A stretch of DNA of 64,000 bases from assembly GCA_046263215.1 (NCBI GenBank), contig JBHELH010000318.1:778-64777 (forward strand). Reading direction: 5' to 3'. The notes beneath the pieces were generated by a model that searched no databases, had not been told where the DNA came from, and saw only the letters and a list, made by a program, of their open reading frames with translations. The position numbers and the translations under genes are program-made. The stretch's first letter is position 1. Each line of letters starts with the position of its first letter. Origin of the DNA: Gemmatimonadaceae bacterium. GTDB lineage: Bacteria > Gemmatimonadota > Gemmatimonadetes > Gemmatimonadales > Gemmatimonadaceae. This document shows, in pieces, positions 1 to 63,945 of the stretch.

Positions 1-261
1 GCCCGTCCAGGTCTTCCCGAAGTCGTCGCTCAGCCGAATGGTGCTCCCCCAGTGGTTGCTCTTCGCCGCGGCCAGGACGCGGCAGCGACCACCGCGTTCG
101 TCGTACGCGAGCGCGTAGACCGCCTCGCCCGGGAAATGCGGGCCGTCGATCTTCCACTTCTTGCGCGACTCGTCGGACGAGAGGATGAACGCGCCCTTCA
201 TGGTGCCGACGAGAACGAGGACGTCGCCGGCGGAGTAGCGGGGTTTGGTTCGTGGGGGCAT
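1..261 (-). CDS. BNR/Asp-box (sialidase-like beta-propeller) protein, N-terminal part; gene runs off the left edge
   Basis: Hand translation of minus strand from ATG at 261-259: MPPRTKPRYSAGDVLVLVGTMKGAFILSSDESRKKWKIDGPHFPGEAVYALAYDERGGRCRVLAAAKSNHWGSTIRLSDDFGKTWTG, open to base 1. It contains a canonical Asp-box SxDxGxTW (SDDFGKTW). It is not in the ORF track because no stop lies in the window. Confidence 0.6.
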   Translation of the reverse strand, partial: MPPRTKPRYSAGDVLVLVGTMKGAFILSSDESRKKWKIDGPHFPGEAVYALAYDERGGRCRVLAAAKSNHWGSTIRLSDDFGKTWTG

Positions 262-336: not shown

Positions 337-1095
337 TCACTTCGGTCCCGCCAACAACGGGTCCTCGAGGCGCGCCATCACCCGCAGCGTCCTAATCTCC
401 ATCTCGAAGTACGGCTTCCCATCGAGCGTGATCCGGACGCTCCGCGGCCACCGCACGCCGTCGGCTTCGACGACCCCCGCGAGCCACACGTCCTCGACCG
501 CCGGGTTGCCGGTCATCGCGTCCGTCACGCGCGTGCGCAGATGCGCGAGTCGCCCGGTGTTGTCGACGAAGACGTCGACGTCGGGCCGCCCGGCCTGCGT
601 CACACGAACCCCGCGCTGGCCGAGCGAGTCGGGCGCGATGGCACTCAGCTGCGCGGCGGACGCGCGCAGCGGGACAAGCCGCATCACGCTGTACAGGTAG
701 AACTGCTGGCGTTCGTTCGCCAATACAGTCGGCGGCATCGGCGTCAGTTGCCCGCCACGCTCGAGCCACCCGCGGTCGCCGCTCAGGATCAGTCGCCGCA
801 CCGACGCCGGCCCGCGCGACGTCTCATACGTCGACACCACAGCACTCTCGGGCGGCTGCACGGCCCAGTGACCGGTGAGGCGAACCGTGCGGCCGCCCGC
901 GTGCACGGTCGCTTCCCCCTCCCACACGAGTGCGCGCGCCCGCTCGAGCGCCGCGCTCCCGCCCGCGCTCCCGATCGCCCGCGCCATGATCCCCTCGGGC
1001 GCCTCATTACCCACGGCCGCGCCCGCGCCACGCTGGGCGGCGCAGCCGAGGGACGCGATGCCGGCGAGGATCGCCACAGCCTGGCCCCCGTTCAT
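337..1095 (-). CDS. Putative lipoprotein, unknown function
   Basis: 252-aa ORF with a lipobox-like N-terminus, MNGGQAVAILAGIASLGC. Its ATG overlaps the stop of the upstream hydrolase gene (ATGA at 1092-1095), indicating translational coupling. Confidence 0.7.
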   Translation of the reverse strand: MNGGQAVAILAGIASLGCAAQRGAGAAVGNEAPEGIMARAIGSAGGSAALERARALVWEGEATVHAGGRTVRLTGHWAVQPPESAVVSTYETSRGPASVRRLILSGDRGWLERGGQLTPMPPTVLANERQQFYLYSVMRLVPLRASAAQLSAIAPDSLGQRGVRVTQAGRPDVDVFVDNTGRLAHLRTRVTDAMTGNPAVEDVWLAGVVEADGVRWPRSVRITLDGKPYFEMEIRTLRVMARLEDPLLAGPK

Positions 1096-4824: not shown

Positions 4825-5177
4825 CGGGAAGAACGTTACTCGGAAGACGGCGGAAGAGGGCGGAAGAGCGGGGAAGAGCGGGCACGCGGATGGCCGCGGA
4901 GGCAACCGCGATGGCCACGGATAACTCCGCGGGGGGTCCCGACTCCTCTCGCCGGCCCGAGAGAAGACCTTGGCTACACCCCCGGGACGCCACGGAGCGA
5001 GGGCGCTAGTCTCCTCGGCCAGTAGCGTCCCGAGCGTGTATAAGCAAAAGCATCGCCCGGGCTCGTGGCGGTATGCAGGCCCGACAGCCGAGGAGCCATC
5101 CGCGGCCATCGCCCTTCATCAATCCGCGCTCGTCCGCGTCCGCGCCCTTCCCCGGAACGACGTCGCTCTTCCGCTCT
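4825..5177. repeat. Composite nested-palindromic element, copy A (outer + middle modules)
   Basis: Tandem decamers (CGGAAGACGG CGGAAGAGGG CGGAAGAGCG GGGAAGAGCG), then CACGCGGATGGCCGCGGA and GAGAAGACCTTGGCTACACCCCCGGGACGC. Mirrored partners follow (AAGCATCGCCCGGGCTCGTGGCGG, ATCCGCGGCCATCGCCCTTCATCAATCCGCGCTCGTCCGCG, CGCTCTTCCGCTCTT). It shares these blocks with copies at 20161, 23330, 48672 and 62568. Confidence 0.9.
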
Positions 5178-10796: not shown

Positions 10797-10827
10797 GCCG
10801 GGCGTAGGTGCAAGAAGCTGGCGAGAA

Positions 10828-10854
10828 CGACTGCGGACTGCAGACTGCAGTCGG
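10828..10854. repeat. Short GACTGCG-type palindromic hairpin between DUF218 and GT4 genes
   Basis: CGACTGCGGACTGCAGACTGCAGTCGG contains the perfect palindrome GACTGCAG-A-CTGCAGTC. It uses the same heptamer as the repeats at 18029, 54268 and 61031. Confidence 0.7.
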
Positions 10855-18002: not shown

Positions 18003-18028
18003 CGCGGCACCCCCGGAGCGAGAGACGG

Positions 18029-18268
18029 TCGACTGCGCTCGACTGCGGACTGCGCACTGCGGACGAGGCGCCGCGAGCACCGGTTGTCGCACGTTCGGCG
18101 GCGTCGCCTGTCTGGAGGAATCTCCGGTGCCCCGGCGGCGAAGTCCAGTCCGGAGAGTGGTGCTCGGATAGCGTTTGCTATAGTATTCGCTACCACACTG
18201 CGTGCAGGCTGGCGACCGACCGAGGCCGTTAGCCCGCAGTCCGCAGTCCGCAGTCGGCCGTCCGCAGC
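18029..18268. repeat. GACTGCG-armed inverted repeat bracketing a divergent intergenic region
   Basis: The left arm is CGACTGCGCTCGACTGCGGACTGCGCACTGCGGAC (18029-18064). The right arm is CCGCAGTCCGCAGTCCGCAGTCGGCCGTCCGCAG (18233-18268). About 170 bp of unique sequence lies between them. Confidence 0.8.
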
Positions 18269-18320
18269 CCCTCTTCCCCTGTCGAGTCTAGCCGTCGACG
18301 ACTACGTCGTTCGCACGCTG

Positions 18321-19101: not shown

Positions 19102-20159
19102 TGGCGCTCGCGGCGCCGGATACTCGACCTCGCCGCCGTCGCCGACGCACTGCGTTGATCTGGACTGTCGCCCTCCTTCTCGGCCTCCCGCTGCTCCTCG
19201 CCCTGTGCGCGTGGCTCTACGTCGTGCACATGCCGGGCGAGACAGGACGCCGGACGCTGTCGTCGCTCACCCCCGCGCAGCGGGAGGTACGGCGGCGGCT
19301 CGAGGCGCATGTACGCGAGCTCGCGGGCCGCATCGGTGAGCGGAACAGCGTGCACTACGAGGCGCTCGAGCAGGCGGCCGCGTACGTCGAGCGCGAGCTG
19401 GCGGCGCTCGGCTACACCGTGACGTCGCAGCGTTGGACGGGCGCCGGCGGCCAGGCGTTTCGGAACCTCGAGGTAACGCTCCCGGGCCGCGCGCGCCCGG
19501 CGGAGGTCCTCGTCGTCGGCGCGCACTACGACTCGAACCGCGGGACACCTGGCGCCGACGACAACGCGAGCGGCGTCGCGGCGATGATCGAGCTGGCCCG
19601 ACTGCTACGTGCCGACAGCGCGGCCGGCCACGCGCGCACGATCCGCTTCGTCGCGTTCGCGAACGAGGAGGTGCCGTTCTTCGGGACCGCCGACCAGGGC
19701 GCGCGTCGCTACGTCGCGGCGCTGAAGGAGCGTGGCGACGACGTACGCTCGATGCTCTCGATCGAGACGATCGGCTACTACGCGACCGGCCCGAAGACGC
19801 AGGTGTACCCGACGCCGCTCAACTGGTTCTACCCCGACACGGGCAACTTCATCGGGTTCGTCGGCGATCTGTCCTCGCGCGCGCTGGTGCACGAAGCGAT
19901 CGGCGCCTTCCGGAGACACACGTCGTTCCCGTCACACGGCGCCGCCGCTCCGGCGTCGATTCCGGGGGTCGGCTGGTCCGACCACGAGGCGTTCTGGGCG
20001 GCGGGCATTCCGGCAGTCATGATCACGGACACGGCGCCGTTCCGGAATCCCTACTACCACACGCGCGGCGACACGCCGGACCGGCTCGACTACGAGCGCA
20101 TGACTCACGTCGTCGACGGGCTAGTGGCGGTGGTCCGACACCTGGCGCGGGCTGACTGA
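19101..20159 (+). CDS. M28 family metallopeptidase, membrane-anchored
   Basis: Start re-set to ATG 19101. An N-terminal anchor (ALIWTVALLLGLPLLLALCAWLYV) is followed by M28 motifs VGAHYDS, GADDNASGVAAMIELARLL, FVAFANEEVPFFG and SDHEAFW. Confidence 0.9.
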   Translation: MALAAPDTRPRRRRRRTALIWTVALLLGLPLLLALCAWLYVVHMPGETGRRTLSSLTPAQREVRRRLEAHVRELAGRIGERNSVHYEALEQAAAYVERELAALGYTVTSQRWTGAGGQAFRNLEVTLPGRARPAEVLVVGAHYDSNRGTPGADDNASGVAAMIELARLLRADSAAGHARTIRFVAFANEEVPFFGTADQGARRYVAALKERGDDVRSMLSIETIGYYATGPKTQVYPTPLNWFYPDTGNFIGFVGDLSSRALVHEAIGAFRRHTSFPSHGAAAPASIPGVGWSDHEAFWAAGIPAVMITDTAPFRNPYYHTRGDTPDRLDYERMTHVVDGLVAVVRHLARAD

Positions 20160-20160
20160 C

Positions 20161-20570
20161 GGGGGAAGGGCGACGGCGTTTCGAGTTGTTCGTTGGGGCA
20201 CGCGGACGAGCGCGGATCGATGAAGGGCGGTGGCCGCGGATCGCTCCTCTGCGCTACAAGACTCCACGCCGCGACGAGCCCGGACGATGCTTTGGCTACA
20301 CCGCCGGGAGGCTACTCTCGCCCCTTCTGTCACCCCGCAGGAGCGAGCGAAGCGAGCGAGTGCGGGGCACCCGCGCAGCGGGCCGGCGCGTCCCGGGGGT
20401 GTAGCAAAGGTCTTCTCGCGGGCCGGCGAACGGAGCCCGGAACGTCCGCGCGGCTATCCGCGCGTGTTCGCCCTTCGCCGATCCGCGGCCATCCGCGTGC
20501 GCGCTTTTCCCCGCTCTTCCGCGCTCTTCCGCGCTCTTCCGCGCTCTTCCCCGAAACGCCCCTCGCCCGT
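20161..20570. repeat. Composite nested-palindromic element, copy B (inverted relative to copy A)
   Basis: Begins immediately after the M28 stop. Contains GGCGTTTCG...CACGCGGACGAGCGCGGATCGATGAAGGGCGGTGGCCGCGGAT, one arm of the core hairpin (CTGTCACCCCGCAGGAGCGAGCGAAGCGAGCGAGTGCGGGG), GCGTCCCGGGGGTGTAGCAAAGGTCTTCTC, and four CGCTCTTCCG decamers. It ends in CCGAAACGCCCCTCGCCC. Confidence 0.9.
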
Positions 20571-23329: not shown

Positions 23330-23812
23330 TCGGAGGGGACGGCGGAAGGGCATGGCGTTGTTCGTTGGGCACGGACGAGCGCGGATCGGCGAGGGGCGAA
23401 AGCGCGGATGGCTCCGCGGCCGTTCGGGGTCCCCCTCGCCGGGCCTTGAGAAGACCTCGCTACCGCCGCTCGGGACGCTCCGACCCCGCCGTGTTGTCAT
23501 CCCGCACGAGCGCAGCGAGTGTCGGGGTCTACTACGCGCGGGGCGTGGCCACCTACGGAGCAGTGCAAGTAGATCCCGACACTCGCTCGCTTCGCTCGCT
23601 CCTGCGGGATGACAAGAGAGGGCGAGAGAAGCCTCCCGGGGGGTGTAGCCACAGCATCCTCCGAGCTGTGGCCGTTGGGCATCTCGTAATGCCGAGGGAC
23701 TATCCACGCGTTTTCGTCTTTCGCCGATCCGCGCTCGTCCGCGCGCCGAGCGATCAAGCCCAACGATTACCTGGAAACGCCTTCGCCCTTCCGCCTTCCT
23801 CGCCCGACCCAG
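23330..23812. repeat. Composite nested-palindromic element, copy C (full, with complete core hairpin)
   Basis: Ends are GGCGGAAGGGCATGGCGTTGTTCGTTGGGCACGGACGAGCGCGGATCGGCGA ... TCGCCGATCCGCGCTCGTCCGCGCGCC...GGAAACGCCTTCGCCCTTCCGCC. The middle module is GAGAAGACCTCGCTACCGCC.../GGGGGGTGTAGCC. The core hairpin is at 23496-23613. The right end overlaps the last codons of the permease gene. Confidence 0.9.
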
Positions 23813-37784: not shown

Positions 37785-38077
37785 CGCTATCCGCTATCGG
37801 TCGCGCTGCGCGCGACGCTATCAGCTATGCGTTATCAGCTATCACCAGTTCGGATGGCCCGGCGCTTCGCGCCGGGCGTTTCATTTGAATGTGCTCAGCA
37901 TAACCACGTAGCTCCGAGCGGAGTCACAGGCCGCGCGCACTCGCGGCGCAGGCCAACTTCGTTGTGCGCAGGATCACCAAATGCAGCAAAGCCCGGCCGC
38001 GCATGCGCGGCCGGGCACACCAAAGTACCGATAGCTGATAGCTGATAGCGGATAGCGTCGCGCGCCGAGCGCGCGAC
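37785..38077. repeat. GCTATCR-armed ~290-bp inverted repeat enclosing two facing terminator hairpins
   Basis: The left arm is CGCTATCCGCTATCGGTCGCGCTGCGCGCGACGCTATCAGCTATGCGTTATCAGCTATCACC. The right arm is CGATAGCTGATAGCTGATAGCGGATAGCGTCGCGCGCCGAGCGCGCGAC. Confidence 0.85.
37981..38016 (-). terminator. Rho-independent terminator of the amidohydrolase gene
   Basis: Minus strand reads GCCCGGCCGCGCATGCGCGGCCGGGCTTTGCTGCATTTGG, ~105 nt after the stop at 38121. A mirror hairpin with a plus-strand T-run (GGCCCGGCGCTTCGCGCCGGGCGTTTCATTTG, 37856-37888) has no plus-strand gene upstream. Confidence 0.65.
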
Positions 38078-40750: not shown

Positions 40751-41127
40751 TCGCTGGCGGGATTCGATCTTTTTTTCGGTGCCACGGACGTGCGTGGCGC
40801 GATCGACTTCCCTTACCCTTGCCGCACGGTTACAGCTCAGGTGCTTCGGAATTCACGAAGCGAACGGTTGTGGCCAGCGACCTCACAACCGACCCGCCGA
40901 CGCCGAACCGCCGACGAGCTGCCCACCGGTAGCGTCCCACCGGGAAGGCCCACGCCCGACGAAGTACCGTGTCGTCGAGCGCTGCGCCATTATCGGGGAC
41001 CAGGGCGGGAGCCGTCAATCGAGAAAATATCCCGAAGGGAGCAGCCTCGGCCGGCCGGTGACGCCGCGCTCGCTCCCGACTAGAATTCGCGCTCTCGGCC
41101 CGCCCAACAGATGAGCCCAATGCCCCG

Positions 41128-42246
41128 ATGACCTTCAGAATCGCGCTCGCCACTCTCGCGCTGCCCGCAGTGCTCGCGGCGCAGCAGTCGTCCGGCGCGT
41201 CGTCGCGCACGCCTGCTGGTACACGTACGGCACGTCCCGTCCTCATCGACTCCGCGCGGGCTCGCATGCTCTATGTGAGCAACCGGCCGGACGACCACCC
41301 GGTCCCCGACTTCGACGCACAGCTTCGCAGCAAGGCGCGTACGGACAGCATCTACCGCGCGCACGCGCGCGGGAACTACGAGTTCCAGAAGGTGAAGTAC
41401 CGGAGCCGCGCCGATGGCATGGAGATCCCCGCGTACGTCTTTCAGCCGCTTCAGCGGCGCGGCGCGCGCGGGCACGCCGCGATGATCTGGGTGCACGGGG
41501 GCGTGCACGGCGACTGGAGCGAGGGAATGATGCCGTTCGTGAAGGAGGCGGTGCAGCGCGGCTACGTCATCGTCGCTCCCGAGTACCGCGGGTCGACCGG
41601 CTACGGCCCGCAGCACTACTTCGCGATCGACTACGGCGGCAAGGAAATCGACGACGTGATCAGCGCGTACGACTACATCACGCAGAGCCTCCCGCACGTC
41701 GACCCGGACCGCGTGGGCATGATGGGCTGGAGCCACGGCGGATTCATCACCGCGCACTCGCTCTTCCGCGACCAACACCCGTTCAAAGCCGGCGCGGCGA
41801 TCGTTCCGGTCACGAACCTGCTCCACCGGCTGAGCCGAAAGGGACCCCGGTACCAGCGGTCCTTCGCGACGCAGCAGACGATCCAAGGGCTCCCGTTCGA
41901 GAAGCCCGAGGAGTACATCCGGCGCTCGCCGCTCTTCCACGTCGACAAGCTGCGCGTGCCGATCCTCGTCCACGTCGCGACGAACGACGAGGACGTGAAC
42001 TTCGACGAGGACGTGCAACTCGTCTACGCGCTCCGATCGCAGAAGCCCGACCTCGCCGAGACCAAGGTCTACGTCGACCCCGCGCCGTGGGGGAACAGCG
42101 TCGGCCACGCCTTCAGTCGCCGCGTCGACCTGGCGACGCTTCAGCGCGTGGACAGCCCGGAGCAGATCGACTCGTGGAACCGAACGTGGGTGTTCTTCGA
42201 GTGGATCTTGCGACCGTACGAGGATCGGTCCAAGGCGAACAGATAG
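41128..42246 (+). CDS. S9 (prolyl oligopeptidase family) serine peptidase / alpha-beta hydrolase, exported
   Basis: 372-aa ORF with a signal peptide, nucleophile elbow GWSHGG, and a typical YRGSTGYG region upstream. Confidence 0.9.
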   Translation: MTFRIALATLALPAVLAAQQSSGASSRTPAGTRTARPVLIDSARARMLYVSNRPDDHPVPDFDAQLRSKARTDSIYRAHARGNYEFQKVKYRSRADGMEIPAYVFQPLQRRGARGHAAMIWVHGGVHGDWSEGMMPFVKEAVQRGYVIVAPEYRGSTGYGPQHYFAIDYGGKEIDDVISAYDYITQSLPHVDPDRVGMMGWSHGGFITAHSLFRDQHPFKAGAAIVPVTNLLHRLSRKGPRYQRSFATQQTIQGLPFEKPEEYIRRSPLFHVDKLRVPILVHVATNDEDVNFDEDVQLVYALRSQKPDLAETKVYVDPAPWGNSVGHAFSRRVDLATLQRVDSPEQIDSWNRTWVFFEWILRPYEDRSKANR

Positions 42247-47483: not shown

Positions 47484-48671
47484 ATGACGGCCCGACTCTA
47501 TTACACGGATTCCTATCTGACGACGTTCGACGCCCAGGTCGTCGAGCGCGGCGAGGCCGGGCGCCGCGTCTACCTCGATCGCACGGCGTTCTATCCGACG
47601 TCGGGCGGACAGCCGGCCGACGCCGGGACGATCGACGGCATCCAGGTCGCCGACGTGGTCGATGAGGGTGAGCGTATCGCCCACATGCTCAGCGAGCCGC
47701 TCGCCGACACCACCATCGGTGTGTCAGGAGCGATCGACTGGTCGCGCCGCTTCGACCACATGCAGCAGCACACTGGGCAGCACCTGCTGTCGGCCGTGAT
47801 CGCCGAGATGCTCGGCCACCAGACCGTCAGCGTGCACTTCGGCGCCCACGCGTCGTCCCTCGACCTGGACGTCGATTCGGTCGGGCGGGAGCATGTCGTC
47901 GCGGTCGAGAGACGAGCGAACGAGCTCGTCGTCGCCAACCGGCTGGTCACGATCTCGTTCGAGGAGGCGGCGTCGGTGGACGGGCTTCGCAGAGCGTCAG
48001 CGCGAGAAGGGACGCTCCGCGTCGTCGCGATCGAGGGTGTCGACCGCAGCGCGTGCGGCGGAACTCACGTGCGCGCGACGGGCGAGATCGGTCCGATCCT
48101 CGTCCGGAAGATCGATCGGGTGAAGAAACAGGTGCGGCTGGAGTTCGTGTGCGGGCTGAGAGCGGTGCGCCGCGCGCGCGCCGACTTCGAGCTACTGTCG
48201 CGGCTCGGGCAGGGGCTCTCGGCGTCGATCGACGAGATTCCGGCGCTCGTCGAGTCGCAGGCCGATCGGCTGCGTGCGGCCGACGGGCAGCGTCGGCGGC
48301 TGGAGGCCGAGCTGCATGCGTATCGCGCACGGCTCCTGTACGAGGCTGCCGAGCGCGACGAGTCCGGCGTGCGCCGCGCGGTGCAACGCCGCGAGACGGG
48401 ATCGCTCGAGGCGCTTCGCGGGCTCGCGCAGGCGTACTGCGTTCTCCCCAAGGCAGTGCTCATCGGTGCCGTCGACGATCCGCCGGCGGTTCTCCTCGCC
48501 GCATCGGAGGATTCCGGGATCGACGCGGGACGCGTGCTCAAGGCGGCCTTAGCGAGCGTCGGCGGCCGGGGCGGCGGATCGCCGCGCATGGCGCAGGGAA
48601 GCGTGCCGGGCGCGGAAGTCATCCCGAAAGTGATCGAGGCAGTGGTGGAGGCGGTGCGTGCGGCGAGGTAG
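47484..48671 (+). CDS. alaX: AlaX-L type alanyl-tRNA editing protein (AlaRS second additional domain + DHHA1)
   Basis: 395-aa ORF with N-terminus LYYTDSYLTTFDAQV, zinc/editing motifs HMQQHTGQHLLSA and CGGTHV, and a C-terminal GGGSPRMAQG DHHA1-like motif. Confidence 0.9.
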   Translation: MTARLYYTDSYLTTFDAQVVERGEAGRRVYLDRTAFYPTSGGQPADAGTIDGIQVADVVDEGERIAHMLSEPLADTTIGVSGAIDWSRRFDHMQQHTGQHLLSAVIAEMLGHQTVSVHFGAHASSLDLDVDSVGREHVVAVERRANELVVANRLVTISFEEAASVDGLRRASAREGTLRVVAIEGVDRSACGGTHVRATGEIGPILVRKIDRVKKQVRLEFVCGLRAVRRARADFELLSRLGQGLSASIDEIPALVESQADRLRAADGQRRRLEAELHAYRARLLYEAAERDESGVRRAVQRRETGSLEALRGLAQAYCVLPKAVLIGAVDDPPAVLLAASEDSGIDAGRVLKAALASVGGRGGGSPRMAQGSVPGAEVIPKVIEAVVEAVRAAR

Positions 48672-48840
48672 GAGGGCGGAAGGGCGAGGGCGTTGCGGGG
48701 AAGAGCGGGAAGAACGCGCACGCGGATGGCCGCGGAGGAAACTGCGATGGCCGCCGAGAGCCCCGCGGGGTGCTCCGGGCTCCGCGTGCACGCTCTTCCC
48801 CGCTCTTTCCCGAAACGCACAACGCCGTCGCTGTTCCGCC
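48672..48840. repeat. Composite palindromic element, copy D (minimal, outer module only)
   Basis: GGAGGGCGGAAGGGCGAGGGCGTTGCGGGGAAGAGCGGGAAGAACGCGCACGCGGATGGCCGCGGAGG...CCGGGCTCCGCGTGCACGCTCTTCCCCGCTCTTTCCCGAAACGCACAACGCCGTCGCTGTTCCGCCC. It starts immediately after the alaX stop. Confidence 0.9.
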
Positions 48841-54220: not shown

Positions 54221-54267
54221 GCGGCGTCGGTCGCCTAAGCGCGTGTGGCGGAGAACAGCAGTCGGAG

Positions 54268-54373
54268 ACGACTGCGGACTGCGGAGTGCGGACTAGAACC
54301 CCCGGGATGCCCCTGTCACCGGCTCGGAGCGTCCCAGGGATTTGTGTCCGCAGTTCGCAGTCCGCAATCGGAC
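54268..54373. repeat. GACTGCG-armed hairpin with conserved core, copy 1
   Basis: GACGACTGCGGACTGCGGAGTGCGGACTAGAACCCCCGGGATGCCCCT...GAGCGTCCCAGGG...GTCCGCAGTTCGCAGTCCGCAATCGGAC. The core and arms are homologous to 61031-61160. Confidence 0.85.
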
Positions 54374-59989: not shown

Positions 59990-61036
59990 ATGATCAAGAG
60001 ACGTAACATTCTGGCATTGCTGCTGGCCGGCGGTCTGGTCAGTTGCGGGGAGACGCCCGGCATTCGGGACGTTTCGCCGAGCTCGGCCGTGGACATGCTG
60101 GCCGGCGTCGTCGAGAACGTCGCGAGCGCCGTGACGGGGAAGGGTCACCTCGGCTTCGACACCGGGATCTATCCGGGCGACGAGACGATGCGTGTGTGGC
60201 GCGCGACCGCACCGTACAAGTGGGTCGGCTATTACCTCCCGGCTCCCTGCCACAAGGACGACTCCTGGGCCGGCAAGCGTGCCCAGCTCACCGACATGGG
60301 CTGGGGGCTCGCGGTCATCTACGTCGGTCAGCAAACGTGGTCGGGCGTCCCCGCCAAGCACTCGACGGTCTACCGCACGACGTACAAGACCAAGACGGTC
60401 ACCAAGTACGTCAGCAAGCGCGTGAAGACCTACGTCAAGAAGAATGGCAAGCGCGTGCCGAAGTACGTGACGAAGCGTGTGCCGACCCGGGTCAAGCAGC
60501 GGGTTCCAGTCCGCACGCCGGTGCGCGTCGCGTTCGAGGAGTCGAAGCACGGACTCATGAGCTGCCAGCGGAACCTCGTCACGCAGTCGCGTGGCGCGCT
60601 CGAGGCGGCTGACGCGATCGCGAAGACCGCCGGCGAGGGCTTCCCGCGCGGCACGGTGATCTTCCTCGACATCGAGCGGATGGATGTGACGCCGAAGGCG
60701 ATGCGTGACTACTACAAGGAGTGGGTCGCGCGCGTGCTCGCGGACGGACGCTTCGTGCCGGGGATCTACGCGCACACGCACAACGCCTCGCTCATCTACC
60801 GGGACGTGAAGGCGGTCTACGCGGGTGCTGGTCGAACCGAGGAGCCGCCGTTCTGGATCGCCGGCGGGCGCAACTTCGCGCCGACGAAGGCGCCGAAGGA
60901 GATCGGGCACGCGTTCGCGGCCGTGTGGCAGGGCGTGCTCGACGTCGTCCAGGAGTGGAACGGCCACAAGGTCAAGATCGATGTCAACGTCGCTGAGACG
61001 CCGTCGCCGTCGCTGCACCGGGTCGAGGCGGACTAG
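59990..61036 (+). CDS. DUF1906 (Rv2525c-like glycoside-hydrolase-like) lipoprotein with Lys/Val/Thr-rich insertion
   Basis: 348-aa ORF with lipobox LLLAGGLVSC and DUF1906 opening GFDTGIYPGDETMRVWRATAPYKWVGYYL. It is a paralog of the next gene apart from a ~65-aa basic insert (aa ~122-186). Confidence 0.85.
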   Translation: MIKRRNILALLLAGGLVSCGETPGIRDVSPSSAVDMLAGVVENVASAVTGKGHLGFDTGIYPGDETMRVWRATAPYKWVGYYLPAPCHKDDSWAGKRAQLTDMGWGLAVIYVGQQTWSGVPAKHSTVYRTTYKTKTVTKYVSKRVKTYVKKNGKRVPKYVTKRVPTRVKQRVPVRTPVRVAFEESKHGLMSCQRNLVTQSRGALEAADAIAKTAGEGFPRGTVIFLDIERMDVTPKAMRDYYKEWVARVLADGRFVPGIYAHTHNASLIYRDVKAVYAGAGRTEEPPFWIAGGRNFAPTKAPKEIGHAFAAVWQGVLDVVQEWNGHKVKIDVNVAETPSPSLHRVEAD

Positions 61037-61160
61037 ACCAGACTAGACCGACTGCGGACTGCGGACTGCGGACTGCGGACTAGAACCCTCGGGATGCTCC
61101 TAAAGCGCTAGAAGCGTCCCGAGGCCGTGAGTCCGCAGTTCGCAATCCGCAGTCGTTTTT
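61031..61160 (+). terminator. GACTGCG-armed hairpin with conserved core, copy 2, ending in T5 (likely terminator between the paralogs)
   Basis: GACTAGACCAGACTAGACC(GACTGCG)x4 GACTAGAACCCTCGGGATGCTCCT...GAAGCGTCCCGAGG...GTCCGCAGTTCGCAATCCGCAGTCGTTTTT. Confidence 0.75.
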
Positions 61161-61189
61161 CGGTACGGTTCTTCCGTCGACTGCGGCGC

Positions 61190-62116
61190 GTGACTAATCC
61201 ACTACGCTTCGCATTGCTGCTCGTGCTCGCCTCGGGTTGCGCGCGGGTCGCGACGACACGCCCTCGGCCGGTAACGCAGAGCTTCGCCGGTTTCGACGTC
61301 GCCATTTATCCGGGCGAGGCCGCGATGCGCGCGTGGCTGCGGCCGAACTCGCCCTACTACTGGGTCGGCTACTACCTCCCCGCGCCCTGCCACCGCGACA
61401 CGTCGTGGGCCGGTAAGCGCGCGACCCTCGCCGGGATGGGTTGGGGACTCGCGGTGCTCTACGTCGGTCAGCAGGCGTGGGAAGGCGTCCCCGAACGGGT
61501 CGCGGCGGCAGACACCGCGCGTCCGGCGGGAGACACGGCGGGCGCCGCGGCGGGCGTGCAACGCAACATCGTGTGTTCGCGCACGCTGCTCACCGCGGCG
61601 CAGGGATTAGCCGAGGCGAACGACGCCATCACCAAAGCATCCGCCGACGGCTTCCCGCGCGGCACGCACATCTTCCTCGACATCGAGCGGATGACGACGA
61701 TCCCGCAGGCGATGCGGGACTACTACCGCGCGTGGGTGGCGCGCGTGCTGGCCGACGGGCGTTTCCGTCCCGCGATCTACGCGCACCAGCGCAACGCGGC
61801 CGAAATTTACGGGGACGTTCGCGCGACATTCGACGCGGCCGGCGTCCGCGACGAGCCGTCATTTTGGGTGTCGAGCCCCGCAGCGGCCACCCTGACCAGC
61901 TCGCCGTCCGAGGTCGGCTTCCGTTTCGCGCGTGTTTGGCAGCACGCGCTCGATGCGTCGCAGACGTTCAACGGCGTCACGTTGCGGCGAATCGACGCGA
62001 ACGTCTCCGACAGCCCGTCGCCGTCGGCGGCAGGGCCTGTCATCGCGAACTCAGGGCAGAGCGCGGCACGCGGGCCCGCGGGAGCGCCGCCTGGGCTGGT
62101 GACGGTCTCGCCGTGA
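61190..62116 (+). CDS. DUF1906 (Rv2525c-like) lipoprotein, paralog 2
   Basis: Start re-set to GVG 61190 read as GTG (VTNPLRFALLLVLASGC lipobox); the track start 61127 lies inside the repeat arm. Long blocks are collinear with the upstream paralog (WVGYYLPAPCH.D.SWAGKRA.L..MGWGLAV.YVGQQ.W.GVP; GFPRGT.IFLDIERM...P.AMRDYY..WVARVLADGRF.P.IYAH). Confidence 0.85.
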   Translation: MTNPLRFALLLVLASGCARVATTRPRPVTQSFAGFDVAIYPGEAAMRAWLRPNSPYYWVGYYLPAPCHRDTSWAGKRATLAGMGWGLAVLYVGQQAWEGVPERVAAADTARPAGDTAGAAAGVQRNIVCSRTLLTAAQGLAEANDAITKASADGFPRGTHIFLDIERMTTIPQAMRDYYRAWVARVLADGRFRPAIYAHQRNAAEIYGDVRATFDAAGVRDEPSFWVSSPAAATLTSSPSEVGFRFARVWQHALDASQTFNGVTLRRIDANVSDSPSPSAAGPVIANSGQSAARGPAGAPPGLVTVSP

Positions 62117-62153
62117 CGGGCCGCCGGCGCCCCACGCAGCACGCACGCGGACG

Positions 62154-62564
62154 ATGCGACACGGATTGATGTACCAGGGTGGGTTCGAGCAGAACTTCGC
62201 GACGCTCGAGCCTGGCGCGCGCACCTTCCGCACGTCGGACGGCGCGGAGCAGTCGATTCCCGACTGGCCGGAGACAGTCGACGGTGTACGCTTCGGCTAC
62301 ATGGAGCGTCGCGGTCGGAAGTTCCTGCTCGTGCGTCTCCAATTCGATGAGCACGACGTCGTCCTCCGCACGCCGGTGGCGCTCGACCGGATGCGGCACA
62401 TGGGCAACCAGCGCTTCGCCCCGCGGCCGATCCTGCTGACCGACGCCAACGCGTCAGCGCTGCTCGACGACGTGATCGAGTGCAACCCCGAGCAGAGCAC
62501 CGAGATCGCACTGTTGATCAACCGCGTGAACCAGGTGAGGCGTGGTCGGGTAGTGTCGTCGTAG
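62154..62564 (+). CDS. Hypothetical cytoplasmic protein
   Basis: 136-aa ORF with good third-position GC, 37 nt after the paralog stop. I recognised no family. Confidence 0.6.
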   Translation: MRHGLMYQGGFEQNFATLEPGARTFRTSDGAEQSIPDWPETVDGVRFGYMERRGRKFLLVRLQFDEHDVVLRTPVALDRMRHMGNQRFAPRPILLTDANASALLDDVIECNPEQSTEIALLINRVNQVRRGRVVSS

Positions 62565-62567
62565 GGC

Positions 62568-63032
62568 TCGGGCTGCGAGGGCGGAGGGGCGAGGGCGTTT
62601 CGGGGAAACAGCGTGGCCGCGGATGACGCGGATGACGCGGAAACGCGCTGATCGCTCCGTGGGACGGTCCGGCCTCCGCTCGCTGGCCCCTGGAAGACCT
62701 TTGCTACACCCCCGGGACGCCACGAGGCACCCTCCCTGTCATCCCGCAGGAGCGAGCGAAGCGAGCGAGTGTCGGGATCTACTTTACGTGCCCTGTGGGT
62801 AGCCACGCTGCAGTGGAAGTAGATCCCGACACTCGCGGCCGCATGCGGCGGCGCTCCTGCGGGATGACAGGGACGGGGCGAGGGTGGCTCCCCGCGGGTG
62901 TAGCCGAGGCATCGTCCGGGCTCGTGGCGGCGCGGAGCCTGGAGCGCAGAGGGGCGATCCGCGCTCTTCCGCGTCATCCGCGTCATCCGCGGCCGCGCCG
63001 TTCGCGAACGACGCCCTCGCCCTTCCGCCGTC
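62568..63032. repeat. Composite nested-palindromic element, copy E (full; best-preserved core hairpin)
   Basis: GCGAGGGCGGAGGGGCGAGGGCGTTTCGGGG...GGCCGCGGATGACGCGGATGACGCGG...GGAAGACCTTTGCTACACCCCCGGGACGC...core hairpin 62736-62870...GGGTGTAGCCGAGGCATCGTCCGGGCTCGTGGCGG...CCGCGTCATCCGCGTCATCCGCGGCC...CGAACGACGCCCTCGCCCTTCCGCCGTCGC. Confidence 0.9.
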
Positions 63033-63038
63033 GCTTCC

Positions 63039-63572
63039 CTACCGCTTCGGCAGATCGGGACAGTTCTCTCGCCGCCGGGTGTCGGTCAATCCGAAGATGC
63101 GCCAGCCTGCGGGGCGGCGAACCATCTGGAAGGCATCGACTCCGCAGTGGTTCTTTCGGTCGCCGATGTAGAAGGTGTAATCGACCCACGCGACCGCGTA
63201 GGGACCGTCGATGAGGACGCGCTCGTTGGCGATTCGCTCGTCATAGACTTCCGCGTGCGGCGTGCCGATCGCGCGCAAGAACATGCCGAGCGAGTCGTCG
63301 GAGACGGTGAGTGCGCCCTGACGGACGCCGACGCTCTGGAGGCGCGCCCCGGGCTCGAAAAGCGCCCGCGCCGCGCTGCTGTCCTGCGCGCGCATCGCGT
63401 CGAACAGACGCTGGACGACGTCGACCACCTCGCGCTCGCGAGCACCAAGTGTGGCGGTCTGCGACCGAGAGCTCGCGGCAACGGTTGCCGATGACGAGGC
63501 GCTACTGCGCGGCGCCGGCACCGTACAGGCGGCGGCGAGCAAAGCTGTGGCGGCGAGAGGTGCGCAACGCAT
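63039..63572 (-). CDS. NTF2-like (SnoaL/DUF4440-type) lipoprotein
   Basis: Start re-set to ATG 63572 (MRCAPLAATALLAAAC lipobox). NTF2-like core: VVDVVQRLFDAMRAQD...ERVLIDGPYAVAWVDYTFYIG...GVDAFQMVRRPAGWRIFGLTD. Confidence 0.75.
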   Translation of the reverse strand: MRCAPLAATALLAAACTVPAPRSSASSSATVAASSRSQTATLGAREREVVDVVQRLFDAMRAQDSSAARALFEPGARLQSVGVRQGALTVSDDSLGMFLRAIGTPHAEVYDERIANERVLIDGPYAVAWVDYTFYIGDRKNHCGVDAFQMVRRPAGWRIFGLTDTRRRENCPDLPKR

Positions 63573-63666
63573 TAGCTGAGGCGTGAAGGCGTCGGAGAGA
63601 ACGTGACGGCGACGCCCCGTGCTGTCCAGCGTCCGTCGCGGGGGCTTACAGTTTCCGAACCGCGGC

Positions 63667-63945
63667 TCACCAGTCGCCGCGCTCCTCGCCACGCCGGTAC
63701 GCGCGCAGCAGCGTGAAGACGATTCCGGTATTGCCGACGATCACCCCGGAGTAGAACGCGAGCCTCGCGTAGCGGTCGTCGGTCGTATGCATCGACCAGC
63801 CGAGCAGGTAGAGACCGATCAGCATCCACATCACGCACAGCGCGCCCGTGCGGACCATGTCGCGTCGTCGGACGCGCTCGGCCTCCAGCTCCGCGGCCTC
63901 TCGGGCCCGGGCCATCTCCTCGAGCAACTCTTTGCGAAGCGGCAT
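63667..63945 (-). CDS. Small membrane protein (2 TM); 5' limit uncertain near window edge
   Basis: ATG 63945 gives MPLRKELLEEMARAREAAELEAERVRRRDMVRTGALCVMWMLIGLYLLGW...FYSGVIVGNTGIVFTLL. The track ORF starts at TTG 63996 and the frame is open to the window end. Confidence 0.5.
   Translation of the reverse strand: MPLRKELLEEMARAREAAELEAERVRRRDMVRTGALCVMWMLIGLYLLGWSMHTTDDRYARLAFYSGVIVGNTGIVFTLLRAYRRGEERGDW

Follow-up and report, generated by a model that had tools for sequence, protein, structure and literature searches.

The subject of this analysis is a hairpin in a 64,000-nucleotide (nt) stretch of DNA from a Gemmatimonadaceae bacterium (contig JBHELH010000318.1), which is called the window below. 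On balance, we favour the reading that this hairpin, core element E, is a gene-less, non-autonomous copy of a family of palindromic repeats of the form TGTCAT...ATGACA, the gene-carrying copies of which hold a GIY-YIG nuclease of ~95 residues. The whole would resemble the system formed by repetitive extragenic palindromic (REP) sequences and REP-associated tyrosine transposases (RAYTs), except that it would be built on such a nuclease. The association between the nuclease gene and the arms of the repeat is an observation in which we have high confidence. That the nuclease acts on the arms is probable, judging from sequence patterns, and the account given below of how the elements might spread is tentative and unlikely to be right in every detail.

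Core elements have two arms in inverted orientation, separated by a spacer. One representative genome per species was scanned with a slightly degenerate arm pattern, which gave at least 111 stretches with the arm in at least 17 assemblies; this is a lower bound, and the 111 stretches listed are the arm-anchored loci used for the later counts. The only mobility-type gene that was found bracketed by arms encodes the ~95-residue GIY-YIG nuclease, which is of the Slx1/UPF0213 type. At locus L046, where a 42-nt spacer would be expected, a 397-nt insert with a lower GC content lies between perfect arms at 76-109 (+) and 507-540 (-). The insert codes for a 95-residue GIY-YIG nuclease starting MRQYYVYILASRSRRLYVG, and its inner ends resemble spacer ends. 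Locus L027, from a different assembly, has an open reading frame (ORF) 55% identical to that of L046 between two complete core elements. The gene at L118, a locus that was reached via a protein homologue, lies between two complete Gemmatimonadaceae-type core elements and beside three stuttered half-arms. For the Gemmatimonadaceae-type arm, these are the three gene-bracketing cases. The GC content of the ORF is 0.50 compared with 0.62 for the locus at L046 (ORF at 142-429), 0.62 compared with 0.73 at L027 (1975-2253), and 0.55 compared with 0.66 at L118 (2501-2790). The GIY-YIG ORFs thus lie ~11 GC points below their loci, yet the arms that surround them are of the local GC-rich type.

Homologues of the nuclease gave 579 matches, all listed ones belonging to PF01541 and many lying on very short contigs. 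Mis-called N- and C-terminal tails of these homologues spell the arm in translation (VILSEAKNL, DSSLRSE, AQDDK, VIPHERSE), and hexapeptides derived from arms by read-through occur in 35 of 270 family proteins, compared with 0 in reversed sequences. The TGTCAT-hairpin repeats are presumably a source of recurrent spurious 'hypothetical protein' ORFs with VILSEAKNL, DSSLRSE, AQDDK and similar strings. A Burkholderiales-labelled metagenome-assembled genome (MAG) has three direct arms TGTCATTCTGAGCGNAGCGAAGAATC before the gene and three inverted arms after it, and locus L113 is alike. An unbiased count was made on 80 metagenome loci that were fetched by nuclease protein alignment alone; the top 7-mers in their flanks are GTCATTC, TGTCATT, AGCGAAG, TTGTCAT and GTCATCC. 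A strict hairpin detector finds an arm of the short GTCATYCTGAGCGNAGCGAAGRATC type within 250 nt of the gene in at least 57 of the 80 loci; arm density falls from 3.46 per kb close to the gene to 0.19 per kb at distances over 500 nt. With a relaxed detector, an arm is seen upstream in 54 of 78 windows and downstream in 44 of 77, compared with 2 of 104 control windows. When eight apparent negatives were read by eye, most were seen to carry variant arms that the detectors miss, so the detector counts are lower bounds. The single GIY-YIG gene among 120 arm-anchored viral stretches is again bracketed by arms. Overall, nearly every family gene examined is bracketed in this way, and gene-linked arms are found in metagenome contigs and MAGs labelled as several phyla.

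The gene-carrying loci are intergenic, lying for example between PCRF/RF-1 and class II tRNA-synthetase genes, or between hsdR and hsdM. Stuttered half-arms flank the gene-carrying units on both outer sides (e.g. TGTCATTCTGAGC plus ~8 nt, with a period of 21-22 nt). The hsdR-hsdM locus, which belongs to a type I restriction system (L199-L202, ~1783-2060), is represented by four versions from several samples, in which the gene and its upstream flank are identical. Among three of the versions, the sole difference is whether a 61-nt arm unit is repeated 2 or 3 times in tandem; the fourth has a single copy of the unit (1) and different DNA downstream of the array. Because tandem copy number varies between near-identical versions, we conclude that rearrangement recurs at the arms on short time-scales; at this locus the gene keeps its position.

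The commonest arm is 34 nt long and has the form GTCATCCCGCAGGAGCG-NAGC-GAGTGTCGGGATC. Other arms are 26 nt (GTCATCCCGC-GCGAAGC-GTCGGGATC), 42 nt with a duplicated GAGCG unit, or 44-52 nt with an inserted GC-rich stem. The two arms within one element are often of unlike form, and so pairing between the two arms is not what maintains the arm centre. Each arm is predicted from its sequence to be a self-folding hairpin with a single-stranded TGTCA tail, a complementary stem that varies between lineages, and a GAGCGNAGCGAG loop with a GNA triloop at its tip. Among the apical loops predicted in 116 unique arms, 97 of 117 are triloops, 73 of these being GNA, and GCGN(N)AGC is present in 57 of the 116 arms. 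The apex reads GCGAAGC, GCGCAGC, GCGGAGC or GCGATAGC. Where the centre of the arm is enlarged, the GNA apex is kept in 50 of 82 arms; after shuffling of the centre, the number is 2.2 (maximum 6). About half of the arms have a GTAG that overlaps their inner foot (AGTAGATCCC). Across the whole family, the conserved tag is TGTCAT, which lies at the outer end.

A covariation analysis, which the initial annotation had proposed as a check, shows that the stem covaries. It used 37 distinct 27-mers from short arms, picked by tail and loop only, with no pairing criterion. In these stems 93.1% of cells are paired compared with 86.4% after shuffling, and 24 cells have changed on both sides compared with 6.7 after shuffling. 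Such values were reached in 0 of 500 shuffles, and slid registers are 21-55% paired. In arms beside GIY-YIG genes, the TGTCA tail is retained, as is the GAGCGNAGCGA loop, and the stem varies (ATTCT/AGAAT, ATCCT/AGGAT, ATTCC/GGAAT, ATGCT/AGCAT, ATCCC/GGGAT, ACCCT/AGGGT, or longer, e.g. ATTCCCGC...GCGGGAAT); the Gemmatimonadaceae stem ATCCCGCA...TGTCGGGAT is one of the longer forms. The arm does belong with the GTCATYCYGAGCGnAGCGnnGGATC-type repeats to which the initial annotation had likened it. Hairpins that a protein reads, or that are read as folded single strands, have just this signature: the tail and the loop stay constant and the stem covaries. In an alignment of 75 elements the arms are near-invariant, with few compensatory changes, and these are compatible with both arm-to-arm pairing and the local fold.

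The hairpin described earlier at 62736-62870 is real, in its coordinates, its exact 17-mer arm ends and its unlike arm centres. Exact copies of the outer 17-mer, GTCATCCCGCAGGAGCG, lie at 62738-62754 (+) and 62852-62868 (-), and those of the inner 17-mer, GAGTGTCGGGATCTACT, at 62767-62783 (+) and 62818-62834 (-). With up to 3 mismatches, the chance expectation per window is 0.98 for the outer and 0.09 for the inner 17-mer, and the observed numbers are far above this. One arm centre is AGCGAAGCGAGC and the other a self-palindromic GC-rich insert. A 147-nt stretch at element E folds with -110.8 kcal/mol, compared with -59.0 +/- 4.1 kcal/mol for dinucleotide shuffles (z = -12.6), and the opposite strand gives z = -12.4. 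The same design was correctly assigned to copy C (23496-23613), and copy B (20329-20367) is indeed a single arm, which keeps the basal stem CCCCGCA/TGCGGGG without any partner arm. Copy C is inverted relative to copy E, as it is 83% complementary to it and 78% identical in direct alignment. The description of conserved arms around a long variable loop holds for the arms. The spacer, however, is not freely variable, because its length is near constant, its centre is conserved and its ends are self-complementary. Taken as the distance from one GATC foot to the other, spacer length has its mode at 42 nt (25 of 76 pairs) and is 41-44 nt in 48 of 76; the spacer ends pair (TACTGTCC...GGGACAGTA) around a conserved palindromic centre, GTGGCCGGCCAC. 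The hairpin is of the recognised type, as had been suggested, and not a simple terminator, given that it has no U-tract, is conserved across at least 17 assemblies and has a stem that covaries.

Among the matches listed, the assemblies with arms are labelled Gemmatimonadaceae, Gemmatimonadales, Gemmatimonadetes/Gemmatimonadota or just 'bacterium', and two of them contribute at least 15 arm stretches each. The arm-anchored loci contain 76 paired elements; candidate units with two termini number 83, of which one is a false match. Boundaries are sharp: across 72 aligned copies, conservation ends at T(-1) and A(+1), i.e. T|GTCAT...ATGAC|A. Larger palindromes such as the one around element E are absent around most copies elsewhere, with only a weak excess of 2-3-nt palindromic extensions beyond the element ends. 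Nesting in palindromes as a general rule was rejected, since most copies elsewhere have no palindromic flanks, and for the same reason the arm is independent of the larger element. Independent copies of the arm outside the larger element therefore exist and the arm is not confined to one genome, the two points on which the initial annotation had staked its proposal. Arms also occur in tandem clusters, as singlets and as stuttered half-arms, and stutters are found beside gene-less elements as well. The ends of contigs coincide with many arm matches.

Target-site duplications of 2-8 nt were sought at three boundary offsets and were seen in 0-4 of ~77 elements, which is chance level. Orthologous loci differ in the presence of the element, which is absent downstream of the window gene at 41062-42246 and present downstream of its orthologue at L104. 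The orthologous loci L068 and L104 are 73-75% identical to the window, and at this identity presence or absence is readable but an exact insertion site is not. For an empty-site comparison of the window, two flanking proteins were looked up, and there was no record of either. Gaps between convergent genes are somewhat over-represented, with 16 of 34 classified elements compared with 58 of 188 background gaps; we count this trend as weak because the gene caller was crude and home-made.

Two further observations concern relatives of the repeat. A short arm, TGTCATYCTGAGCGNAGCGAAGRATC, is present in at least 120 stretches of IMG/VR contigs classed as viral (L203-L322). A second subfamily, found mainly in one assembly (DATANT), has a longer asymmetric spacer of 66-86 nt, GCTCTCCCTCGCGGCCGTT...CACGGGACGTGAAGGC, in either orientation (L005, L011, L017, L018, L036, L050, L055, L071, L079, L104, L106).

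The family protein has 93-100 residues and consists of the nuclease domain only, with no auxiliary domain; the GIY-YIG catalytic positions Y7, Y17, G19, R27, H31, E64 and N83 are invariant. The family is large (26,465 cluster representatives at E <= 0.001, 10,252 at E <= 1e-10), and no NCBIfam model names the nuclease. Its profile, compared with the PDB, matches only the structural-genomics UPF0213 proteins 1ZG2 (E = 1.3e-8) and 1YWL. The predicted structure (predicted local distance difference test score, pLDDT, 95.5) is matched best by 1ZG2 and then by Slx1, including Slx1-Slx4 on branched and 5'-flap DNA (6SEH, 7CQ4), with UvrC weaker and no I-TevI chain among the 50 structural matches listed. 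On these matches, the nuclease is a Slx1/UPF0213-type minimal GIY-YIG domain with a predicted Slx1-like fold. According to Dunin-Horkawicz et al. (2006), the standalone Slx1-like proteins of prokaryotes are repair enzymes that are inherited vertically, and it was the UvrC lineage that gave rise to the selfish GIY-YIG enzymes (PMC1564403). The arm-bracketed branch does not fit that picture of vertical inheritance.

How such a nuclease might drive the repeats can be sketched as follows. It would recognise the arm when this is extruded as a hairpin, in a cruciform or in single-stranded DNA, from the arm's shape together with its conserved tail and loop, and would nick it there or close by; on either strand of an element, the arm at the 5' end would be the one in the GNA-loop orientation. 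Host repair or recombination of the breaks might then copy the elements, duplicate them (as in the terminal 'stutter' arrays) and spread them, through homing-like gene conversion between copies, through slippage that gives stutters, and through occasional capture at other breaks. If insertion favoured the tips of existing palindromes, a nested structure such as the 490-nt one in the window could result, as could the nesting in a few other genomes. It is possible, if somewhat doubtful, that the TGTCAT-hairpin repeats are non-autonomous members of an undescribed class of mobile element, the sole gene of which encodes a ~95-residue Slx1-like GIY-YIG nuclease that reads an extruded hairpin or cruciform by structure and loop, with spread via host repair of nicks; this would be a second, mechanistically different counterpart of REPIN-RAYT. 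The literature search found no link of GIY-YIG, UPF0213, COG2827 or YhbQ proteins to REP, REPIN, RAYT, miniature inverted-repeat transposable elements (MITEs) or extragenic palindromic repeats, and no discussion of the repeat sequence itself, with subscription journals mostly outside the search and earlier work possible.

Several points weigh against this account. There is no GIY-YIG gene within the window itself, and arms far outnumber genes elsewhere, with 2 genes in the 111 listed Gemmatimonadaceae-type loci and 1 in 120 viral loci; a gene that had invaded the repeats would give the same excess of arms. Gene-less spacers are only modestly similar to the inner ends of the gene-carrying element in the same MAG. 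One GIY-YIG locus is found at the same place in 18 contigs from many samples, with no visible hopping of the gene. Since GIY-YIG nucleases hydrolyse DNA and are unable to join strands, spread must depend on host repair, a conjecture. With nearest-neighbour DNA parameters, four of five arms fold no better than shuffles (z from -0.06 to -1.9; one short arm -2.8), and the case for the local arm fold rests on comparative evidence, namely covariation, because nearest-neighbour folding gives none. Folding of this kind may miss the special stability reported for sheared G-A/GNA loops. The idea that gene-less elements are deletion derivatives of the L046 element was also considered and set aside, the similarity of inner ends being only suggestive.

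In the main rival explanation, the repeat is invaded by the gene, which would encode a free-standing endonuclease of the homing type: the enzyme would cut gene-less elements in or near the spacer and the gene would be copied in by recombination across the arms, with something else spreading the repeats. We regard this as rather unlikely, although several observations speak for it. The L046 gene replaces the 42-nt spacer and leaves inner ends that resemble those of a spacer, the GC content of the ORFs looks foreign within arms of local type, and genes are rare relative to arms; homing is moreover the classic lifestyle of selfish GIY-YIG genes (PMC1564403). However, the protein is a ~95-residue catalytic domain with no separate DNA-binding domain, and has the Slx1/UPF0213 fold rather than that of I-TevI. 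L027, L118 and many metagenome loci have the gene between complete doublets or arm arrays, not inside one element, and no other mobilising gene was found in 2.0 Mb around arms and GIY-YIG genes. A typical GIY-YIG homing endonuclease would also join the nuclease domain to a DNA-binding domain and have its gene in an intron or a conserved target gene, whereas this protein has the nuclease domain only and its loci are intergenic.

A reading that seems improbable is that of an immobile structure which serves the host and has only an incidental link to the nuclease; it might form a hairpin at RNA 3' ends, stabilise mRNA, insulate convergent genes from each other or bind a host protein. This reading would suit the very strong folding energy, the position of the arm-bearing composites B, C and E between convergent genes, and the excess of convergent gaps, in so far as the crude gene caller can be relied on. 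No U-tract and no terminator-like site was found at 62000-63700 on either strand, however, and the presence of the element differs between the window gene 41062-42246 and its L104 orthologue. Contigs often break at arms, which also form tandem clusters and stuttered half-arms, and the enrichment around one small nuclease gene by the relaxed detector (54/78 and 44/77 compared with 2/104) is hard to call incidental. A role as RNA 3'-end hairpin between convergent genes, if there is any, may be secondary.

More improbable still is a REP/REPIN element that depends for its mobility on a RAYT (an HUH Y1 transposase) acting in trans, with its gene elsewhere in the genome. The design would fit, with imperfect-palindrome inverted doublets, singlets, tandem clusters, an extragenic position, no target-site duplication and the GTAG-like foot (AGTAGATCCC) at the inner end of many arms, and the initial annotation had named a RAYT-like or other HUH/tyrosine transposase as a possible partner. 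None was found in the 2.0 Mb, where the bracketed gene is the ~95-residue GIY-YIG nuclease. A tblastn search with E. coli RayT (NC_000913) found the E. coli control and no RAYT in this DNA; no RAYT profile search was made, and distant RAYTs could be missed. Scans for the motif HUH...Y..NP, in the first 720 kb around arms and then in the 2.0 Mb, returned nothing but the E. coli control. Known RAYT genes have their own repeats on either side, whereas the flanked gene here is a GIY-YIG nuclease, and the family-wide tag is TGTCAT and not GTAG.

All-against-all clustering of ORFs at the 111 listed loci gave no recurrent transposase-like neighbour; the clusters near arms are the repeat's own spurious ORFs and large paralogous families of kinases, histidine kinases, MacB/FtsX, beta-lactamase-fold proteins and peptidases. 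An ordinary MITE derived from an insertion sequence with a DDE transposase and the same terminal inverted repeats (TGTCATCCCGC termini) is highly improbable, for although the elements are small, numerous and intergenic and have terminal inverted repeats, they make no target-site duplication above chance, no parent insertion sequence with a DDE transposase was seen near arms, where the recurrent neighbours are kinases, permeases and peptidases, and no longer element with the same ends was noted except the GIY-YIG one in a list of longer terminus pairs that was only partly inspected.

Within the window, five modular composite palindromes, lettered A to E, fill whole intergenic gaps (4841-5139, 20158-20553, 23340-23811, 48659-48812 and 62560-63049). 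Features of those that carry the arm are collected in Table 1. Composite E occupies the entire gap between convergent ORFs at 62154-62564 (+) and 63039-63692 (-), and folds with -382.6 kcal/mol (z = -18.2). The composites share outer modules, e.g. GGGCGGAAGGGCGAGGGCGTT and GAAGACCTTTGCTACACCCCCGGGACGCC, in various combinations; copy A has the GCTACACCCCCGGG module and no core element at its tip, and copy D has outer modules only. A and D lie between same-strand genes. The flanking genes are ordinary chromosomal ones, among them those for ribosomal protein S4, an amino-acid permease, an M28 peptidase and a Ser/Thr kinase.

Table 1 Position and structure of the palindromic repeat features in the window.
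Feature	Position	Strand	Description	Basis
Core element E	62737..62869		Gene-less palindromic repeat unit TGTCAT...ATGACA, 133 nt	72 aligned copies, fold z
Element E, left arm	62738..62779	+	42 nt, GTCATCCCGCAGGAGCG-AGCGAAGCGAGC-GAGTGTCGGGATC; predicted to self-fold, apex GCGAAGC (GNA triloop)	
Element E, spacer	62780..62821		42 nt, TACTTTACGTGCCCTGTGGGTAGCCACGCTGCAGTGGAAGTA; contains the 34-nt 'loop' of the initial annotation	
Element E, right arm	62822..62868	-	47 nt; outer and inner parts as in the left arm, centre a GC-rich self-palindromic insert, CCGCCGCATGCGGCCGC	
Composite E	62560..63049		Imperfect palindrome, 490 nt, with core element E at the apex	Inverted repeat, fold, ORFs
Core element C	23495..23614		Inverted relative to E, nested in composite C	
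Element C, first arm	23496-23529	+	34 nt	
Element C, spacer			42 nt	
Element C, second arm	23572-23613	-	42 nt	
Solo arm B	20329..20367	+	GTCACCCCGCAGGAGCGAGCGAAGCGAGCGAGTGCGGGG	
GCGGATGAC tandem run	62613..62637		9-nt units	Read from sequence
Mirror run	62964-62988		GTCATCCGC x2	Read from sequence

The GCGGATGAC and GTCATCCGC runs of the outer modules resemble arm termini (GTCATCCCGC) that point outward, and may be decayed older arms or products of stutter. Related CGCGGAT/ATCCGCG motifs are seen at 4890-4925, 5095-5140, 20205-20240 and 20455-20500. Tandem repeats of 10 nt, CGCTCTTCCG and its complement GGAAGAGCGG, lie at the outer edges of composites A and B (20492-20553, 4841-4880). There is no tRNA or tmRNA gene in the window. 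Rfam gave nothing at gathering score in the window and, with permissive settings at 62500-63100, chance-level matches only (E >= 0.25).

The window has other repeats as well. A second, unrelated intergenic family has tandem GACTGCG/GACTGCGG units in inverted pairs (10806-10853, 18018-18288, 54247-54370 and 61027-61155) and comprises repeat families D3, D6, D7, I9, I11 and I19. The adjacent paralogous genes 59990-61036 and 61127-62116 (direct repeats D1/D2) are 76-77% identical in DNA, and their proteins of ~330-350 residues share the core 'YPG...YYLPAPCH..SWAGKRA...GWGLAV.YVGQQ'. A further unrelated inverted repeat pair, 37797-37863 and 38010-38076 (I6), has units of 67 nt that are 76% complementary and 146 nt apart.

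UPF0213 or Slx1-like bacterial GIY-YIG proteins have had structures since 2005 and, to our knowledge, no known role; their link to the repeats gives them a concrete and testable function. The same link gives annotators a handle for masking repeats that add read-through tails to database proteins and end contigs. If the nuclease drives the repeats, then a REP/RAYT-like relationship arose on an enzyme unable to rejoin DNA, and movement could be tested with one 95-residue protein and a 30-nt oligonucleotide. If it mobilises the elements, they would be a new class of bacterial mobile element.

Compared with known systems, the nuclease is like the standalone UPF0213 proteins of Slx1 type (1ZG2, 1YWL) in its profile match, closest fold and minimal GIY-YIG domain. 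It differs from the UPF0213/Slx1-like group of PMC1564403 in that the branch described here is bracketed by arms and lies below its surroundings in GC content, and from Slx1 itself in keeping the invariant C-terminal Asn, N83, that Slx1 lacks according to the same study (PMC1564403). GIY-YIG homing endonucleases such as I-TevI and the Seg proteins share the GIY-YIG core in a small, selfish-looking cassette between housekeeping genes, whereas the nuclease here has no DNA-binding domain, no intron and no conserved target gene. We know of no homing enzymes that accompany families of gene-less hairpin repeats. The apex of the arm, with its fixed GCG and AGC flanks and free middle base, is like the GCGNAGC/GCGNNAGC mini-hairpins, which have documented stability as single-stranded DNA and have been published from phage and plasmid replication origins and engineered oligonucleotides (PMC13037366); here the motif is embedded in a repeat family, and the likeness is one of sequence motif.

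The functionally closest system is REP/REPIN-RAYT (PF01797), as known from E. coli and Pseudomonas fluorescens. Three differences set the present repeats apart: the gene that they flank encodes a hydrolytic GIY-YIG nuclease and not an HUH tyrosine enzyme able to cut and rejoin, the conserved tag is TGTCA with the GAGCGNAGCGAG loop and not GTAG, and the repeats occur in MAGs labelled as several phyla with lineage-specific stems. The repeats are not members of the REP/REPIN-RAYT family, because their gene is not a RAYT and their conserved tag is different. What the two systems have in common is a set of short imperfect palindromes, found as singlets, in tandem clusters and as inverted doublets that form long hairpins, which are extragenic, numerous and without target-site duplication, and which far outnumber a small nuclease gene that is itself flanked by the repeats.

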